A stretch of 64,000 bases of DNA, taken from the NCBI GenBank assembly GCA_003971905.1, contig RSEE01000008.1, positions 992,001 through 1,056,000 of the forward strand, written 5' to 3'. A program made the position numbers and the translations under genes. Shown here piece after piece: positions 38,878 to 48,004 of the stretch (within the stretch, counting starts at the first letter, position 1; every line of letters begins with the position of its first letter). The stretch comes from Moniliella sp. 'wahieum'. Taxonomy: Eukaryota. The notes below the pieces were generated by a model that saw only the letters and a program-made list of their open reading frames with translations, was not told the DNA's origin and searched no databases.

Positions 38878-40190
38878 GTCGCTGCATCGCACTTGCTTCA
38901 CTGGCTATGACCTCGCAGTTTGGGGTAATGAGCTAGCTATCGTCATCACGAACACGTTCTCGCATGCCTTATGGCTCTGCCCATGTCGAGTGCATGCCGT
39001 CTGACGTATGTCTACGGCGCCTGTTTCGCAGCTGCTGCATGTTCGATGATTGAAGCTCATTAAACTCATTGGCCCTGTAAGGGCCCTGGCAGCCCACCCA
39101 GCATGTTATTTTGTGGGCGTGGAAGGAAACAAGTTTGACAGTTTCGCGGGTATTTACAGAGTAAGAGCCGAAGGGGTCCGCTCCCAGTCTACAAGCTATT
39201 CTCCCACAAACCGGGAGACCAAAGATAAGCCATCGCCATGTGTACTTGTGCTTCGCGGCATTCACACCAGAAACACCGCATGAGTCCATACACGAGCATA
39301 AGACGAGGCTCTCAGAATGGGGTGCATATTAGGCAGCGATGAATTGAGGGGTTCATCATGGCAACACGAGAGGATCACCGGTCTGAGTGCCGTAGATGTG
39401 AAGTTGGCTTACGGGCCCTGAGCCTTTTATGGTTGGGGCTTCGTCCCACGACTAGCATTTAGCTATTGTCCACCGTTCCAGCCTACAACATAGACTAGGT
39501 CAACCCTCATCAATCACATTTACCGTACTCGTTACAGAGAAACAGAATTGGCATGCCGCTCAGAGCATCAGCCGGTCAGGAAGACAGCCGTATTTCGCGT
39601 GCATGCCCTAAGATGAAGCGAAACTGAAGGGGTACGCGAAGGTTGGCTCAGCCTGGAAGAATGGGCTTGATGGCGAAGCAGACGGAGAAACCAAAAGGAC
39701 GTACTCCTAAGTATACATGAGGGGGGCAGTAGCACACAGAGTCCGCGCGTTGAACACTGGGGCTGACTCGCTGACCTCCCGCTAGGTATGTTCCAAATGT
39801 GGTTCCGGCCTTTTGGCTAGTCGTTGAGGGATCGAATACGATTGCGGTGGGAGGTAGGTTCGATAACCTCGACGAGAGAGTGCATCATACCACTGGGCGT
39901 TTCTCACCCGAAATCCACATGCAATGCGTCAGCACAGGATAGCAGCAATCTAGCTCTTGTTAGCGGGCCCGCCGAGGCGCGTGCTATGATTCTGCTCTCC
40001 TGTCTATGGTGATTACACACCGAGAGGGGCTGCAAGGCCAGGAGATAGGATTTTGACGAATACAAGCCGAAAATGGCCAAAAGGGATCCAGAAAAAAAAG
40101 TAGGAACCAAGAAGATCTGACGCGCTCATGTTCAGTAGGGGGGAATGGGTTGCCGCCCTTTTGCCCCCCACCAAATTTTGTGCCAGAGAC

Positions 40191-41928
40191 TTAGTTGTTC
40201 ATGTAGGAGCTCGAGTCAATCGTGTCCGGCAGCTCGGGAATGGCTACCTCGAAACGAGACTGAATGTCGTCCAGCACCTTCTGGTCCTCCTCCGACGAGA
40301 CAAACATGATGGCCAAACCCTTCGTGCCAAAGCGGCCGGCACGGCCCACACGATGGAGATACGAGTCGGCCTCGCCGGGCGTGTCGTACGAGATGGAAAC
40401 GTTGACCCGCTCCACATCAATACCGCGGCCAAAGATGTCGGTGGCAACGAGGATGCGCTTCTCAAAGTTCTTGAACTGTTGGTACCGCTTGATCCGCTCC
40501 TCCTGGGGAAGCGAACCATGGATCGAAATGGAAGGGAAGTTGCACTCCTGCAACAGCTTGTCCAGTTGATTCGCCCGCGAGACCGACTTGACAAAAATGA
40601 TGACCTGGTTAAACTCAAGCGTGTCGAGCAAGTCGTTCAGCTTGCGGTTCTTCTGCGCCTCCTCGAGGCGGACATAGTGCTGCTGAAGACCGTGCAAGGT
40701 CAACTTGGTCTCGTCATCAACGTAAATCTCGAGCGGGTTCTGCATAAACTTCTTGCAAACAGGACGAATCTCCTTGGACAAGGTGGCAGAGAACATCATC
40801 ACCTGCTTGTGATGGGGCGTGGCGCGGAAAATCTCCTGCACGTCGCGGCGCATGTCGATCGTTTCAAGCATCTTGTCGCACTCGTCCAGAACAAAGTGCT
40901 TGACCCCAGTTGCCTTCAGCGACTTGTCCCGTACGAGCGCGTTCATCCGTCCGGGCGTACCGACAAGAATGTGGGGGCAACGAGCCTTGTCCTTCAGCAG
41001 CGCCTGGTCCTCCTTAATGGGGGTACCACCGTAGACAACCGAGGTGCGCACCTCAGGCATGTACTTGGAGAAACGGAGGTACTCGTTCTTGATCTGGAAG
41101 GCCAACTCACGCGTGTGGCACATGACGATCACGCTCACCTCCCCATCCACCGGTTCAATCTGTTGCAGAGTTGCCAGGACGAAGACGGCGGTCTTACCCA
41201 TACCCGACTTGGCCTGGCAAAGCACGTCCATGCCAAGAATGGACTGAGGAATACACTCTTGTTGGACTGTGGAATGAGATGGTTGGGAGGGGTCAGTTGC
41301 GGGCCTTCAGCAGCGCGGGTTGGAAATGGCGTACCTTCTGAAGGGTGCTCGAACCCAAGGTCACTGATGGCGCGCAGAAGCTCGGGCTTGAGCAAAAAGT
41401 CACGGAATCCAGTCGAGTGGATGCCTACGTAGGAGCCCTGACGGCGGCGAAGAGAGAAGGTAAGTAATGGTCGGAGAAGCTGGAGAAAGGTAAACAAGTC
41501 CCCTAGTCGGGGCGGGGCGGGTCTGGCGTGGTCTGGTGTGGAACAGCCTGCCTGGCCAGTCCACAACGGGGCTTGCGGAGAAAAGCGGAGGGACAGGGTC
41601 CGACGCGTCCAAGCATCCGACAACATTGACCGGGGCCCAACGACACGCAGCAACACGTTGCACCTGCGCAGGGGCCGCGCAGAGCACACAGCACAGTGCA
41701 CCGATCCCGCCGAGACGAAGAGGAGGGTGGGGAATGGGACTCAGACTAAGATTGCATGCTGACCTTTTGGCGCCGTCGGCTTCGGCCGGGGCAGCGTCGG
41801 TGGACTCCCCGGTGGTGGCGGCGGGGGCGGGGGCAACAATCTCCTCCTCGTAGTCGATGAGAGGGCAGGGGTGTGGTTAGTGGTGGGATGGAGGGGGGGG
41901 GCTGCGACACATACTCTTCGTTGTCCAT
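40191..41928 (-). CDS. SUB2: DEAD/DECD-box RNA helicase UAP56/Sub2
   Basis: [94 protein letters not shown]. Confidence 0.97.
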
Positions 41929-42325
41929 GGCGAAGGGCAGATGCACGGGTGGTGGTGGCCAGAAGAAGCGCGGCGGGCGACTCGCGTCGGGCGTGGGCAG
42001 GGACCGCCTGGGTCCTGTCGTCTCGGCGTGGCGTGTGCGGATGAGGTAAGGCGCGGGCACCGCACCAGCCTTGCGGCCTCTCTCAGAAGAGAATGCAGGC
42101 TCGCACAGCGCCAGTGCTGCCTGCGTGGCCGGGAGCGGAATGAGGCGAGCGGAACCTGCTGGCATGGGTGGTTGGGTTGCAGGCCACATGGAGTCCAGCT
42201 GTGTCGCGGGCGGCAGGACGGAAACTTTCACCGTGCCACGACACAGCGACAGGCCGAGGCGCTGGTCGCCCTGGAGCGCGTTGGGAGGAGGCGGCGCAGC
42301 GCCAGTGTCGGACGCGACTTACGAG

Positions 42326-43650
42326 ATGCCGATCGGCGCAGCGCCAACTGGACGACCCCGCAAGCTGACGCGCCCTCCCGCCCCCGTCCAGCAGCCATGT
42401 CCAACGAGCACAAGGACACGTCCGACTTGGGCTGTCAACCTCCCACGGCTGGGTGTGCGCAACCTTCCCATTTCTCTTTGCATCACACGCTGACCTCGGC
42501 ACCGCCCCAGCGTATTTCCACGATGGCTACTCGCTCAAGCAGTTCCAGGTCCTTTTGAACGTCGCCTTGGACCAGGCGCGTTCTTTTGCCGGAGGTGTTC
42601 GTGACAACACCATGGCCTGCGTCTCTCATTACGGTCTCTTGCACCCCGAAAAGGTGCGCAACATTTTGATCATGGACTGTATGCCTCTCGCACCCCCCAC
42701 CCCAGAGGGACCTACGAGAGGGTGGAGGCGCTGCAGATCATTCTGTTGGGCCGCAAGTCCACCTCGCAGGGTAACGAATCAGTCGGGTGCGATGAGGAAC
42801 AAGGACCCAAACCTGTGTTGTCTTTCGTCTCTAGCGCGTTATTTTTTCCACCGCTGTGCCTCCTTCCGATGACCATGTGCTTACTTTGGAAAGACGTGTT
42901 GGCACTGTTCCTAACCCTGGTGCATTTCCGCCTCCTGTGCTTGTTACCCCCACCCCTGTTCGGGAAACGGGGCCTTCTGCGTCTGCTGTGCCTACTGCAT
43001 CTGCTGTGCCTGCTGCGCCACGATCCGGAAGTCGCCTGGGTCCAATCGCTGTCGCCGCTCCAACCCCCACCGCCTCTATTCCAAGCAGCATGATTACGGT
43101 TGCGTGTGAAACGCTGCTTCAGACCATCCCACCCCCTCCTGCACCTCCTGCTCCCTTTCCCAGTGAACTGACGCTGCGTCCGAACGTCGCGTCCGTAACC
43201 CATGTCTGGGAGGAGTGGGACAAGGGGTGGGGGGGAGTGCTTTGTCTGCGGGATCAGCTTAAGCCGCCGCCGCGATTCAACGGGCCCGGTGGACGGCGAC
43301 GACCTGGTCTCAAAGCGGTCGGTGGTTCGCAAGAGAACATGCTCAAACGCCGTCGCAAGGTTGGCCTGCGCATCGAACAGCTCATCGCCACGTACAAGGT
43401 CAAGCTCACCACGTCCGAAATTGTCAAGCGGGTCCACACTGCCTTTGAAATGTTGGGCGAGAAGCGAGGCGGGTTCACACAGGTCTGCGACAAATTAACA
43501 CTAATCCACGACGCTGACTTGGTCTTGCCAGAGAAGGAATGGACTATGGAGAAGGTTGAGCAAGTCTGGAGCGGACTACGTCGACAAAAAGGACCTAAAA
43601 CGACGGTGCAGGCACTGCAGTCCCGTCACGATCAAACAAGTGAAGCTTGA
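42326..43650 (+). CDS. Crypton/Ndc10-derived protein: AT-hook-like motif + truncated tyrosine-recombinase-like domain + GCR1_C DNA-binding domain
   Basis: MPIGAAPTGRPRK.. spliced in frame via intron 42453-42510 to AYFHDGYS..RDNTMACVSHYGLLHPEKVR..EGP..ALQIILLGRK..GAMRNKDPNLCCLSSLARYFFHR (Ndc10-II/CryptonF-like). C-terminus LRPNVASVTHVWEEWDKGWGG..LRDQ..KRRRKVGLRIEQL (GCR1_C-like). Confidence 0.72.
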
Positions 43651-45299
43651 AGGAATCAATATTGGTGTTGTACAATGCGACATGAGCCTTGGCGGCAGGT
43701 TGAACGCGGATATAACCGGATAACCTCAGGCTTGCTCTGCCCGACGTTCAGGGCCATTGCGAGCCCGGATAGGAGGCCTTGAATGGTATGGTATAGGGGG
43801 GGAAATGGCCATGCGCGCTGCACCATGCATCACCCGTCGCGCGCAACACCAGGCGCCCAAGGTTTGCGCACAACGACGCCAACGCACCTCTTGTGCCAAA
43901 ACAAAAAGGGGTATATTGCCTCCATGCGGACGCAAAAGGACACAGCACAGATGAGCAGCAAAAGGGGCACATGCCGCCTCACAATGCAACAGAGCCCGCC
44001 AATTTGAGATGGTGTTACACGTTAGGGCCAACCCCCACTAATCCGCGAACAGTAACTATCCATATCGCACAGGCGCTCGGAAGCTGCGCATCAACTACTA
44101 TAGATAGTAAGTAGCGTCGCCAGCTCACGGTCGCTAGTAAGCTAGTAAGCTGCCCAGAATGATGGGGAACGTTGAGGTGAACGTTGAGTACGTTGAACGT
44201 CGAGCCGATTAAGCGTGGATCCGAGCTGCGCTTCAACGCTGACTCATCGATCATTGCGCTGAAGTCGCTCAACGTGCGCACCCACGTCAACGCTGCGCAT
44301 CCGTTCAGCGTTTATCTATCGTGCAATGAGGCGATGACATCTTGAGAAGATAACATGGAACACTGAAAAATATACCTCAAAAGCCCCCTCTCGCTGATCC
44401 ATCGTTGGCACTACACCCAAAAAGAGTCATCTAATACATGCCAATTGAAGAATGCGATGCGGCCTGTGGCCCGGCGTGTAGGGCACATTAACAGGGCTCG
44501 TAAGTCTGGAAAGGATGGAGATGTTTGTACGTATAAATAACCGCTGAGAGCTGTATACATTAGTCTATGGCAACAGAGAGGGAGAGCTTTCGTTGTTGTT
44601 GTGACATGTGACGCAAAAGCGCGTACAAGCAAATTAACGGAGACATGGTGGAACATCCAGGTTCTCTCGAATGCCAGATGAATGAACTCAAAGCCTTGAG
44701 GCTCAAGCTTAAATTTGAACTGAGCCTCGGTGAGGGGGACCTGAACGGCTGAACGAGAGAGGGAGCAGAAGGACATATACACTCCTGCTTTTGTCCGCCA
44801 GTTAGTAGAATAGAGAGACGCATTTGCGGAGGAGGCGATCTGGGGAGCATGCAGAGGTCAGATCGACTAAGGAGATATATGGTAACTGGACTACATTATG
44901 GCAAGAGAGCTGGTATTTTATGGCGAAAGGGCTGGTATTGCGACGGCCAGCACATCAACTATCCTACAACAACCCATGGGGTGGCCTCACGCGTTGCCGA
45001 TTGAGTCGCGCCGATTTCGAGCGGGAAACAGGGGACATTATCGATGACACGATGTACAGACTACTGCAGTGCCATGCGATGGGCCGGCCGCGGTAACCGG
45101 TAATTGTTAATTGCCAACCCATCCCAACGTCCATGGCTGCGGCCTATTAACACAGTGCCGGGTTCTCCTTTCCACTTCTTTTCACAACTCCACACTATAT
45201 ACTACCCCTATTACTCCTTTCGCACCGTCCATCTTCTGTTCGTCCACGCCAGCCTATCGGCATGTCAGTACTGAAAGTCCACACAACGATTGTGCGCTG

Positions 45300-48004
45300 G
45301 CACTGAGCCAAAATGGTTCGAGCATTCTTGCTCCGCCTACGCCGCCTCCCAAAACAAAGGGTTTAAATCTGACCCTGTCGCCTGACGTCCTTTGTTGGGT
45401 CGCCGGAGGGACAGCTAGGTGCTCTCATGTAAGCCAACCGTCGCAACACCCCTGGCCGCCGGCTATTTCTACCCCTCCTCTCTGACCCCACCACCTCAAG
45501 CCATGCCCCACTTGATCGACCTGCGCCACATCCTACCCTGACCTTTGTGCCTGGGCTGTACACACGGCGCGTGTCACTCCCTGATCCGCAATAAAGAATA
45601 CCACCCTCTGGCCTCCGCCCCCTCGACATCCTCATCCGCTTTTCGTCTGGTCCTCTCATCTGTCGCTCCATGTCTACTTCTTCATTGTGTACATCGACCT
45701 CCTCACCCCGCAAAATCGTCTCCACCCACCCACCCACCTTGGCTCCCCCTCTCAACCATCTCAGCTTTCCCCAAGCAGCCCTGTTTCTGTCAAAACGCCA
45801 CCGAGCGTGTTGAGCCCCCCTGCGTTCTTGTCTGACCCCTCTGACGACTACCATCATAACCTCTTCCCTCGTTTTGGGCTGAGCTTCTCGGGTACTCCTG
45901 CTGGTATGTCGACCACCCACAGGGGTTCCTTGAACGAAAACGGGGACCTTTCCCCCCGTACCCAGACCTACGATTTATCGCCACATTTCCCCCCAGAAAC
46001 CAAAGGTATGTCTGCTTTGCCATCGTCGACCAAAGATGCACAACAGCTGACCCCTTGGCAGAAAACTTGCGTCCGACCCAGAACCTTCTGTTGGATTACA
46101 ACGATTGGTTTTTCCTATTCCAACATCGCCTTTGGCCCAGGGTGAAGAGAAGGAACGCTTCCGCATACCTGCTCCCTTTGGACCCAACATGACCCTGGCC
46201 CATCGTTCTTCTTCCTCGTCCTCGTTCTCCTTGTCGTCCGCCACTGAGGATGCTTGGCCCCATAATCTCTTCTCCCCGATCCCCCCTCCTTGGAGTCCTG
46301 TGTCGAAAGAGGGTGGAACTGTCCCAAGCCCATCAGACCTCATTGATCCCTTAAAGAGAGACCCCCCGCTAAGTTCGGCCAATCGCTCATTTGGAGAATT
46401 GGGTGTTATGCCGCTGGACCATTCCAGGTCGTATCCAAGTCACAATCTTCTCCCTTCCGATTGGGAAGGGATGATACAACAATGCGTGAGTTGCAGGCAA
46501 AAATCAGTGGTTTGCTCAAAGCTTCAACCGTGCCTGCACGCGCTCTGCATGCCCTGCAGCAGCCGCATATCGACTCGGTTTACGGGTCATCTCTTCTTCT
46601 GTCCTTGTGGCTCCCGAGTCGAGCGCCTGTCTTATATTAGAGCAATTGGCCCGCCCCGCGTTTTGTCCTCCACAGATCCAGCCAAGGCTGTCGGAAGCAC
46701 AACGCTCAACAGCAGGGGGGTTTCGGATGTTGATGTCTCCCAAGCACAATTCCGCCCGCTTTCGCTTCCACCTCCTGCCTTCTCGTCTGCAGTGGCCAAA
46801 CGAATGGAGGTAGGCAATGACGTTGAAGATCTGACGGACCAAATGGAGCAACTGCATTTACCCGACAGGTGCGCCAAGTCATCCTTCACTGTGGTGCGAG
46901 TGGACAATATTCCGTGGACGACGACGATTGAGGATGTGCTGCGCTGGCTTCCGCGGGACCTTCTGCCTCCGCCGCAGATGGTGGTGCAGCCGGTCCATAT
47001 TCCGATCGACCTGAAAAACGGAAAAACCTCCAACGCCTGTTTCGTCGAGTGCGCCACGCCCTTGGCCGCCCAACACCTCATTCTTACCAAGACCAACACC
47101 CGCCTTGGTCCTATGGGAAGCGAACGGCCCGTCAGCCTAGTGCAGAGCTCCTACAATGAAGTTTGGGGAAGCATCTTTTCTCCCCCTTCTCCTGCAGACG
47201 TCCCCACCTCTCGTCTTGGTACCGACTCTGCTCTGCCCGTCGTTGTGTTCCCCCAAGACCGATTGGAGCAATTACTTGCCCTATCCCATTTCCCTCCGAC
47301 CCAGCTCAAGAACCAAACCAAGCCAATCGAGTTCCTCACTTCGGCGTTGTGTCTTCTTCCCAGTACATTGTCCGCCAATCAAACCTCGCTATTGGTCCAC
47401 TATGTCCAGCGTACGTCTTTCCTTTTCTCATGCAAGAACCGCATCGCAAATAGTATACTGACCTTCTGTGGAACTGGTTGTAGAGATGATCACCGTGACC
47501 ATCCAACATTGGCTGCAATTGGACAGCCTGGTACGGACTCCTTTAGAGCGTTTGCTCTTGGCGGCCAAGAAAACATCAGCGCTGGGCCCATCCCTCTCCT
47601 CGACCATCGATACCGCCTGGAGAGTGCTGAACCAAACCGCATCTGCTGACGCGTTACCTCCCATTATCCCGCCGATCAAAAAGCGCGTTGGCCGGCGTTC
47701 GTCCCACACCCATGACCGTTCTTCCCGACCTCCGCCCGCGTATTTGTGCCACCACGCCCCTCCGTCTCTGGTTTCGCACCATCATGCTCGCGCCCACTCG
47801 TTCATCTCGCTCCATCCAGCTTTGCCCAGCGAGATGCGTATGACCACACAGCAAGACCTCTCTTCTTTGATGCATCAGAACCCCGACTTCTCTTTCCCAC
47901 GCTACCACCCATCCCGCGACACGCTGCCCTCCACGTTGCCCCAGTCTGTTTCGGCCCCGCCCTTTCTCGGCAACCAATGGGAGCACTTGGGTTCCAATTT
48001 CTAG
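45300..48004 (+). CDS. RING finger + quasi-RRM RNA-binding protein (start uncertain)
   Basis: CVSC..LQPCLHALCMPC..FFCPCG (C3HC4-like) and VVRVDNIPWTTTIEDVLRWL..VHIPIDLKNGKTSNACFVEC..RLG..RPVSLVQSS..EVWGSIF. Intron 47411 to about 47483. Stop at 48004. Confidence 0.75.

Follow-up and report, generated by a model that had tools for sequence, protein, structure and literature searches.

Does a stretch of fungal DNA that joins an AT-hook-like motif to sequences resembling CryptonF tyrosine recombinases encode a domesticated regulator, or is it what remains of a decayed element? This question is raised by positions 42326-43650, plus strand, of a window of 64,000 nucleotides (the whole stretch of DNA analysed: assembly GCA_003971905.1, contig RSEE01000008.1, positions 992,001 to 1,056,000; all coordinates below refer to the window). 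An earlier note on this DNA had described the locus as a Crypton-derived, apparently non-catalytic protein that was domesticated into a DNA-binding regulator and lies head-to-head with the essential gene SUB2. The individual elements named there, GRPRK, LLHPE, a Pro/Ala linker and a GCR1_C-like end, were all found in place. On balance, however, we favour another reading of the locus, namely a truncated, internally deleted and frameshifted coding fragment derived from CryptonF, which is catalytically dead and probably a functionless relic. The argument refers to the following features:

42326-42452, plus strand: hypothetical exon 1 in frame 2 with the AT-hook-like motif GRPRK (putative translation; no Pfam family at E<=1)
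42453-42510, plus strand: candidate intron 1 of 58 nt, with a GTGTGC donor and a CTGAC branch site 15 nt before a CAG acceptor
42511-42709, plus strand: recombinase-derived piece 1 in frame 0, with DGY and SHYGLLHPE, up to ..PEG (assigned by codon usage and by colinearity seen by eye)
42710-42787, plus strand: recombinase-derived piece 2 in the ancestral frame 2 (..EALQIILLGRKSTSQGNESVG, the GKTNQ.G region), out of frame with pieces 1 and 3
42771-42834, plus strand: candidate intron 2 of 64 nt, with a GTAACG donor, a pyrimidine tract and a TAG acceptor, and no CTRAY branch site
42789-42872, plus strand: recombinase-derived piece 3 in frame 0 (AMRNKDPNLCCLSSLARYFFHR), matching NDC10_II with 16.6-17.2 bits (E 0.003-0.004, profile positions 84/92-112 of 317)
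42835-43140, plus strand: linker rich in Pro, Ala, Thr and Ser in frame 1, codon score about 0
43171-43236, plus strand: first part of the GCR1_C-like domain (LTLRPNVASVTHVWEEWDKGWG), Pfam GCR1_C with 17.1 bits, E 0.0067
43237-43335, plus strand: insertion-like basic Gly/Pro stretch at the position of the CryptonF YG..WR motif (by eye; codon signal weak or ambiguous)
43336-43650, plus strand: second part of the GCR1_C-like domain and C-terminal tail, stop codon at 43648-43650, with the strongest coding signature of the locus

The ancestry of the locus was deduced from two protein families. According to section 6 of Kojima and Jurka (2011, PMC3212892), an NDC10_II-like recombinase domain combined with a GCR1_C domain is the pair that defines CryptonF proteins and Cbf2/Ndc10. 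Matches to both families, each of them below the threshold, were located on one strand and in the CryptonF order: NDC10_II at 42768-42854 (15.6-16.6 bits, E 0.0084-0.0042, profile positions 84-112 of 317, cut-off 26.3) and GCR1_C at 43171-43236 (15.0-17.1 bits, E 0.031-0.0067, profile positions 2-23 of 80, cut-off 23). The control set consisted of 53 other open reading frames (ORFs) of at least 35 codons from the other frames of the locus and from both strands of the flanks (41746-46439). Three of these 53 ORFs showed any family at E<=0.1 (E 0.044-0.057, unrelated domains of unknown function), none showed a family at E<=0.01, and none matched a recombinase or GCR1 family. By arithmetic from the E-values, a chance co-occurrence of NDC10_II and GCR1_C amounts to about 1e-6 or less. 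Because the two families that define CryptonF match on one strand and in their proper order, the Crypton ancestry is more than chance.

The motif order led to the same conclusion. The locus was compared visually with the aligned CryptonF proteins in supplement 3 of the same paper, in which ..DRG..L.DGY is followed by SHY.LLR(G/S)E.AR.LEL.DL, EG.T, QGKTNQ.GR and R....E.CP.G.LA.YLF.RW, and then by a Ser/Thr/Pro/Ala-rich linker and ...tV..lW.EW..G..G.p....LE..YG..WR....E..FF.RR..I. Seen by eye against this alignment, the locus contains DGY, SHY.LL(R>H).E, EG.T, G(R)K(S)T.Q.G and R.KD..C....LA.Y.F.R in the CryptonF order. The C-terminal motifs ..V..VWEEW..G and KRRRK..I..L follow this order as well, and KRRRK..I..L is colinear with the CryptonF RRK.I motifs. 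In frame 0 the locus reads ..YFHDGY..VSHYGLLHPEKVRNILIMDC.., and in frame 1 an ORF of 271 codons is open from 42835 to the stop codon at 43648-43650 and encodes, in this order, a Pro/Ala/Thr-rich stretch, ..NVASVTHVWEEWDKGWGG.., a basic Gly/Pro stretch and KRRRKVGLRIEQLI... The Crypton ancestry suggested before was thus borne out by the colinear family matches and by the motif order relative to supplement 3, and a derivation from a CryptonF element is supported; we infer the transposon origin itself from these sequence similarities.

The preservation of the recombinase-derived part was analysed with a codon-usage log-odds score, which was trained on seven Pfam-supported ORFs from the window. 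Measured against its own codon-usage signature, this part carries at least two frame breaks. The reading that is colinear with CryptonF runs in frame 0 up to 42709, in frame 2 (TYERVEALQIILLGRKSTSQGNESVG) at 42710-42787 and again in frame 0 at 42789-42854; after the second break frame 0 is open to 42869 and ends with a stop codon at 42870-42872. At 42513-42710, frame 0 reached +0.38 per codon versus -0.31 and -0.45 in the other frames, and at 42710-42787 frame 2 reached +0.51 versus -0.55 in frame 0. In leave-one-out windows of 26 codons from real genes, the true frame was beaten by at least 0.9 in only 1 of 965 cases. The frame junctions are contiguous and located at short G runs of 3 bases. 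Contiguous junctions leave no room for introns and imply a -1 shift followed by a +1 shift, and since the two shifts cancel each other, frame 0 remains open across 26 garbled codons.

Of the two breaks, at about 42709 (-1) and about 42788 (+1), the second was additionally read through. The read-through resulted in a modest gain of the NDC10_II match to 20.1 bits (E 3.7e-4, profile positions 78-112), compared to 17.2 bits for the 27 residues after the break alone and 16.6 bits for the unchanged frame 0. The match was lengthened by 14 profile positions, and its score stayed under the cut-off of 26.3. Piece 1, the N-terminal 66 residues, gave no Pfam match of its own. What had been called the N-terminal half of a CryptonF/Ndc10 domain therefore has CryptonF-like motifs, as proposed, but is distributed over three frame segments and terminated by the stop codon at 42870.

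Concerning the activity of a putative product, catalysis is excluded as far as a sequence can show, because the position of the first catalytic Arg is taken by a His and the catalytic half has been lost. The LLHPE motif is located at 42636-42650, and its His codon (42642-42644) occupies, in a comparison by eye, the place of the Arg in LLR(G/S)E of supplement 3. Neither an HxxR/Tyr half nor any integrase-like match was found in any frame of 41746-46439, and the complete R-H-R-Y tetrad that defines autonomous CryptonF elements is not present at the locus. In the proteins of supplement 3, about 250 residues precede DGY, and the segment between YLF.RW and the linker, in which the HxxR and Tyr motifs lie, is several hundred residues long. 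At the locus the frame-0 coding signature begins no earlier than about 42480-42510, the first ~250 CryptonF codons are absent, and the distance from the last recombinase motif to GCR1_C is only about 95 codons of low-complexity linker. The non-catalytic status and the presence of a Pro/Ala linker (Pro/Ala/Thr-rich, 42835-43140) where the HxxR/Tyr half is expected were thus correctly recognised in the earlier note.

CryptonF elements have been described from fungi and oomycetes, for example Crypton-Cn1 from Cryptococcus neoformans and CryptonF-1 of Phytophthora, Rhizopus and Neosartorya (Kojima and Jurka 2011, PMC3212892). As far as the alignment in supplement 3 of that paper extends, the locus shares with these proteins the order of the parts, that is a recombinase N-terminal region (DGY, SHY.LLR.E, GKTNQ.G, R...C....LA.YLF.R), a low-complexity linker, which resembles the stretch preceding GCR1_C in CryptonF proteins, and GCR1_C. 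Unlike CryptonF, it lacks the entire catalytic half together with the initial ~250 codons, has His instead of Arg in the LLRGE-type motif, is frameshifted in the recombinase part and has no G..WR core in the GCR1_C region.

The GCR1_C domain had been described as intact-looking, which the Pfam model does not bear out: the match covers 22 of 80 profile positions and reaches 17.1 bits versus a cut-off of 23. The second half of the GCR1_C-like region alone gave no Pfam GCR1_C match and could be recognised by eye only. Compared by eye with supplement 3, the region contains about 12-15 extra residues at the CryptonF G..WR motif, and an insertion-like GPGGRRRPGLKAVGG stretch stands in place of the published YG..WR core. 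A compensated frameshift within this insertion (43230-43310) was also considered and dropped, as the codon signal is weak and the other frames contain no convincing motif. Two minor observations concern the C-terminal ORF. A second basic patch, GGRRRPGLK at 43291-43317, lies inside the GCR1_C insertion and is AT-hook-like without the canonical GRP core; the linker contains at 42972-43017 a tandem repeat of 18 nt (2.6 copies, 85% matches) that encodes SAVPTA/SAVPAA units.

Searches for relatives remained without success. A phmmer search with the 271-aa ORF against 1.84 billion representative proteins revealed no match at E<=0.001; the related collection includes the proteomes of Tilletia, Jaminaea, Tilletiopsis and Ceraceosorus. 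The lack of relatives means that there is no conserved orthologue at that depth, which argues against an old, widely conserved domesticated gene. Among metagenome contigs of the Joint Genome Institute (JGI), 338 pattern matches were obtained, none of which was confirmed. A word-index search with the 167-aa frame-0 ORF among longer proteins delivered 389 candidates, none at E<=0.01, and a PF16787 profile search of 14 control genomes gave no match. In a PDB sequence search the N-terminal ORF had no match and the C-terminal ORF one meaningless low-complexity match (E 8.6). With the protein atlas, the best score for the C-terminal part was 0.83; a cluster with 33% GCR1_C members ranked 11th with 0.81, which we regard as a lead only. 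For the N-terminal part the atlas proposed an alpha/beta hydrolase (0.87), which we rejected as a chance result, as it is based on few shared features and has no Pfam support. AlphaFold2 modelling of the 169-aa C-terminal part without an alignment yielded an unusable model (mean predicted local distance difference test score, pLDDT, of 42.6).

Taken together, the region from about 42480 to 43650 would be the 5'-truncated, internally deleted and frameshifted remnant of the gene for a CryptonF tyrosine-recombinase protein, or possibly the remnant of a gene that was once derived from a CryptonF-type element. The surviving parts would be a non-catalytic N-terminal piece of the recombinase of about 115 codons, in three frame segments with the stop at 42870, the native low-complexity linker and a C-terminal region of GCR1_C type, which is divergent but still has an open frame. 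The locus cannot recombine DNA, with the first catalytic Arg changed to His and the half containing Lys, HxxR, Trp and Tyr gone. Most probably, the recombinase part yields no functional product and the entire locus is a decaying relic. The sequence features, the frame breaks and the loss of the catalytic half are observed directly, and we infer both the order of the events and the lack of function.

The possibility of an intact gene was analysed with different gene models. In model A, translation starts at ATG 42326 and removal of both candidate introns (42453-42510 and 42771-42834) results in 400 codons without a stop. Model B starts at ATG 42397, has its first donor at 42455 and shares the second intron with model A; it results in 377 codons without GRPRK. 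The frame-1 ORF alone, read from its first Met at 43090, encodes 186 residues. Candidate intron 1 joins frame 2 in frame to frame 0 (from 42511), and its style is like that of the SUB2 introns. The only short connection identified that leads in frame from frame 0 into the GCR1_C frame is candidate intron 2; it is weaker than intron 1 and would excise most of piece 3, which means the best-conserved recombinase motif and the bulk of the NDC10_II match. If up to three GT-AG introns are drawn from 575 candidates, 42326-43650 stays open in 234,832 combinations, and because this number is so high, an open spliced ORF is weak evidence for a gene. The single-protein model of the earlier note, which depends on two candidate introns of which the second removes the best-conserved recombinase motif, is therefore not upheld.

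The proposed AT-hook exon gave a mixed result. The frame-2 stretch opened by ATG 42326 reads MPIGAAPTGRPRK, with GRPRK encoded at 42350-42364, so that the motif is indeed in frame with an ATG and is followed by an in-frame candidate intron. In contrast, no coding signal was detected in the AT-hook frame (42326-42452, -0.13 per codon; frame 1 is favoured at 42360-42419, though these windows are short and noisy), and a start at 42397 skips GRPRK.

Several observations weigh against a relic. Only one copy is present within the 64-kb window, and nothing there shows a repeat family. Two short GT-AG introns, similar in size to those of SUB2, suffice for a complete 400-aa ORF. At 43320-43410 frame 1 scores +0.48 to +0.77 per codon, which is as strong as SUB2, and the 271-codon ORF is unbroken versus two or three breaks in the 115-codon recombinase part. 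By arithmetic, the probability that all breaks fall into the first third is about 0.03-0.09, a hint at selection on the C-terminal ORF. Finally, no stop has accumulated in the ancestral frames. The main rival reading is a young exaptation, which we regard as possible but doubtful: the locus would be a lineage-specific gene that is expressed and owes its use to the DNA-binding end of GCR1_C type, and its product would be the 400-aa spliced protein with the AT-hook, the 377-aa protein from ATG 42397 or the 186-aa protein from Met 43090. The dead recombinase part would serve as a spacer or intron, transcription would be divergent from the SUB2 spacer and, by analogy with Gcr1, Hot1 and Msn1, an expressed product would bind DNA through its GCR1_C domain. 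Such a gene would be in line with the open 271-codon ORF and its strong frame-1 codon signature (43320-43530), with the two in-frame candidate introns of 58 and 64 nt, the first of which has a consensus CTGAC branch site, with GRPRK in frame with ATG 42326 and with the limitation of the frame breaks to the recombinase part. It would also have a precedent, as GCR1_C alone is common to all yeast Crypton-derived genes listed in section 6 of PMC3212892. On the other side, many intron combinations are open, intron 2 lacks a CTRAY branch site, exon 1 lacks a coding signal in the AT-hook frame, and GCR1_C is only partly recognisable and without the G..WR core. The codon signature is kept equally in the demonstrably out-of-frame segment 42710-42787; because of this it records past and not present coding and is no proof of present function. 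Furthermore, no orthologues were found at E<=0.001 among the 1.84 billion representatives or in the JGI metagenome contigs. A more specific version, in which a CryptonF copy in the upstream spacer of SUB2 lost its recombinase to an intron or spacer and the GCR1_C end is expressed divergently together with an acquired AT-hook exon, appears rather unlikely to us. We are similarly sceptical that a host resembling Ustilaginomycotina would have gained in this way a lineage-specific DNA-binding regulator independently of the yeast cases. For an independent domestication with a promoter shared with SUB2 we found no positive evidence and some evidence against it, and the step to a DNA-binding regulator is not supported in view of at least two frame breaks in the recombinase-derived part.

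The remaining explanations are improbable to different degrees. An internally deleted, non-autonomous Crypton, mobilised in trans by an intact CryptonF elsewhere in the genome, has in our opinion a small chance of being correct. In non-autonomous DNA transposons the catalytic core is usually deleted internally and the ends are kept. The internal deletion of the catalytic core at the locus would agree with this anatomy. CryptonF elements do occur in Basidiomycota (PMC3212892, Table 1). However, the 5' part of the gene is also gone, the frameshifts point to decay, and the window contains no second copy. An autonomous CryptonF would be expected to have short terminal direct repeats of 4-6 bp and to occur in several copies. 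Repeat scans of 41900-46100 detected no termini, terminal direct repeats or long repeats, just the 18-nt tandem repeat of the linker. Even less probable is an assembly artefact, in which sequencing errors at G runs produced both +/-1 shifts and the true gene has an intact, non-catalytic N-terminal half of the recombinase. The location of both shifts at short G runs and their cancelling in frame 0 would be explained in this way, but the runs have merely 3 bases, and the stop at 42870 and the loss of the catalytic half would remain with both shifts corrected. Assembly errors are also unlikely because the seven Pfam-supported ORFs of the window, about 9 kb in total, are each uninterrupted, although their choice is biased to intact ORFs. 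The lowest probability is assigned to a chance resemblance of a locus unrelated to Cryptons. Both Pfam matches are under the curated cut-offs, the phmmer search was empty and the atlas search of the N-terminal piece gave alpha/beta hydrolases; against this stand two partner families in the right order on one strand, with none of the 53 control ORFs coming close, the improvement of the NDC10_II match by read-through, and the few shared features behind the hydrolase score.

The relic reading can also be compared with known Crypton-derived sequences. Section 6 of PMC3212892 lists Gcr1, Hot1, Msn1, Cbf2/Ndc10 and Cdg1 as Crypton-derived yeast genes. They resemble the locus in their GCR1_C-type C-terminal region, and the recombinase-like centre of Gcr1 and Cbf2 has likewise lost the catalytic site. 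The yeast genes, however, are intact ORFs conserved across species, whereas the recombinase-like part of the locus is broken in frame. A close parallel is the Crypton sequence in an intron of ATF7IP in chicken and turkey (section 9 of the same paper), which has a fixed host locus and a frameshift in the recombinase region; whether it is a relic or an exon is judged there from predicted splicing, with no mRNA to confirm it. The bird sequence is 97% identical between species separated by 107 million years, which shows selection. Apart from PMC3212892, no paper among those listed by full-text literature searches dealt with a basidiomycete gene of Crypton origin. If the locus is a relic, it matters little: it would be one more decayed CryptonF fragment and would indicate that a basidiomycete lineage with little sampling formerly harboured Cryptons. 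If the C-terminal ORF turned out to be expressed, with conserved counterparts in close relatives, an early stage of Crypton domestication would be seen here, in which the recombinase decays and the GCR1_C end is kept, and this would illustrate the origin of the yeast regulators Gcr1, Hot1 and Msn1 and of the kinetochore protein Ndc10.

The surroundings of the locus consist of fungal-type eukaryotic DNA, as does the entire window (G+C 59%, no N). On the side of the 5' end two features are of importance:

40194-41928, minus strand: SUB2/UAP56-type DEAD-box helicase gene (Pfam DEAD and Helicase_C, PDB matches, tblastn of relatives)
41929-42325, no strand: intergenic spacer of 397 bp between the SUB2 ATG and ATG 42326, GC-rich (0.68-0.69)

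The main exon of the helicase gene is located at 40194-41306, and its 5' exons reach the ATG at 41928-41926. The best PDB matches of the protein were DDX39B/UAP56 (E 3.9e-176) and yeast Sub2 (E 5.8e-172), compared to E 1.5e-72 for the next DEAD-box family in this search, eIF4A-III. The minus-strand neighbour is hence a SUB2/UAP56 orthologue, closer to DDX39B/Sub2 than to other DEAD-box helicases, and the head-to-head arrangement across about 400 bp that had been reported before was confirmed by the ATG-to-ATG distance of 397 bp. SUB2 is a neighbour of the relic and not a part of it; the relic itself sits inside a spacer of 4.1 kb that separates SUB2 from the next gene.

The SUB2 protein also provided information about the host. 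Identities, determined without a tree, were taken from the 120 best of 6,235 strong matches. Among these, the best named relatives were Tilletia horrida (87%) and Jaminaea pallidilutea (85%), followed further down by Meredithblackwellia (83%), Sporobolomyces (82%), Tilletiopsis (82%) and Ceraceosorus (81%); a protein encoded on a contig of 1.9 kb was 97% identical. As the closest named relatives include Tilletia, Jaminaea, Tilletiopsis and Ceraceosorus, the host, a yeast-like fungus, is a basidiomycete, in agreement with the earlier assignment, and judged by these identities it probably belongs within or close to Ustilaginomycotina. The 5' end of SUB2 (41841-41928, minus strand) showed an oddity. 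The relatives begin with MDNE(E/D)LIDYEEE, and the window contains LIDYEEE in frame with no AG acceptor upstream. The sole canonical splice found there (GTGTCG donor, GAG acceptor) skips LID and results in MDNEEY-EEIV, and the corresponding intron contains a run of 9 G. Possibly the 3' splice site has shifted, or the sequence is faulty at this point.

Downstream of the locus, positions 43651-46050 showed no coding signal in any frame and a G+C content of 0.47-0.56, and Pfam, Rfam and tRNA scans of this region gave no match; Rfam and tRNA scans of 39000-48000 were also without a match. With 2.4 kb this non-coding stretch is unusually long for a gene-dense window, and it may hold further decayed sequence of the element. 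For the next ORF (46051-47649, 532 codons) four relatives and no more were detectable, with 34-43% identity. This low number implies that the host's own proteome is absent from the databases and that the lineage is poorly sampled. The four relatives carry a precomputed PF28442 assignment, and a Pfam scan of the ORF itself found no family at E<=1e-5. A further observation concerns octamers similar to AACGTTGA, of which the whole window contains 50 (at most one mismatch) versus 34.8 +/- 5.7 in shuffled sequences. Ten of the 50 form a dense cluster in both orientations within 145 nt at 44168-44312, about 520 bp downstream of the stop codon of the ORF at the locus.

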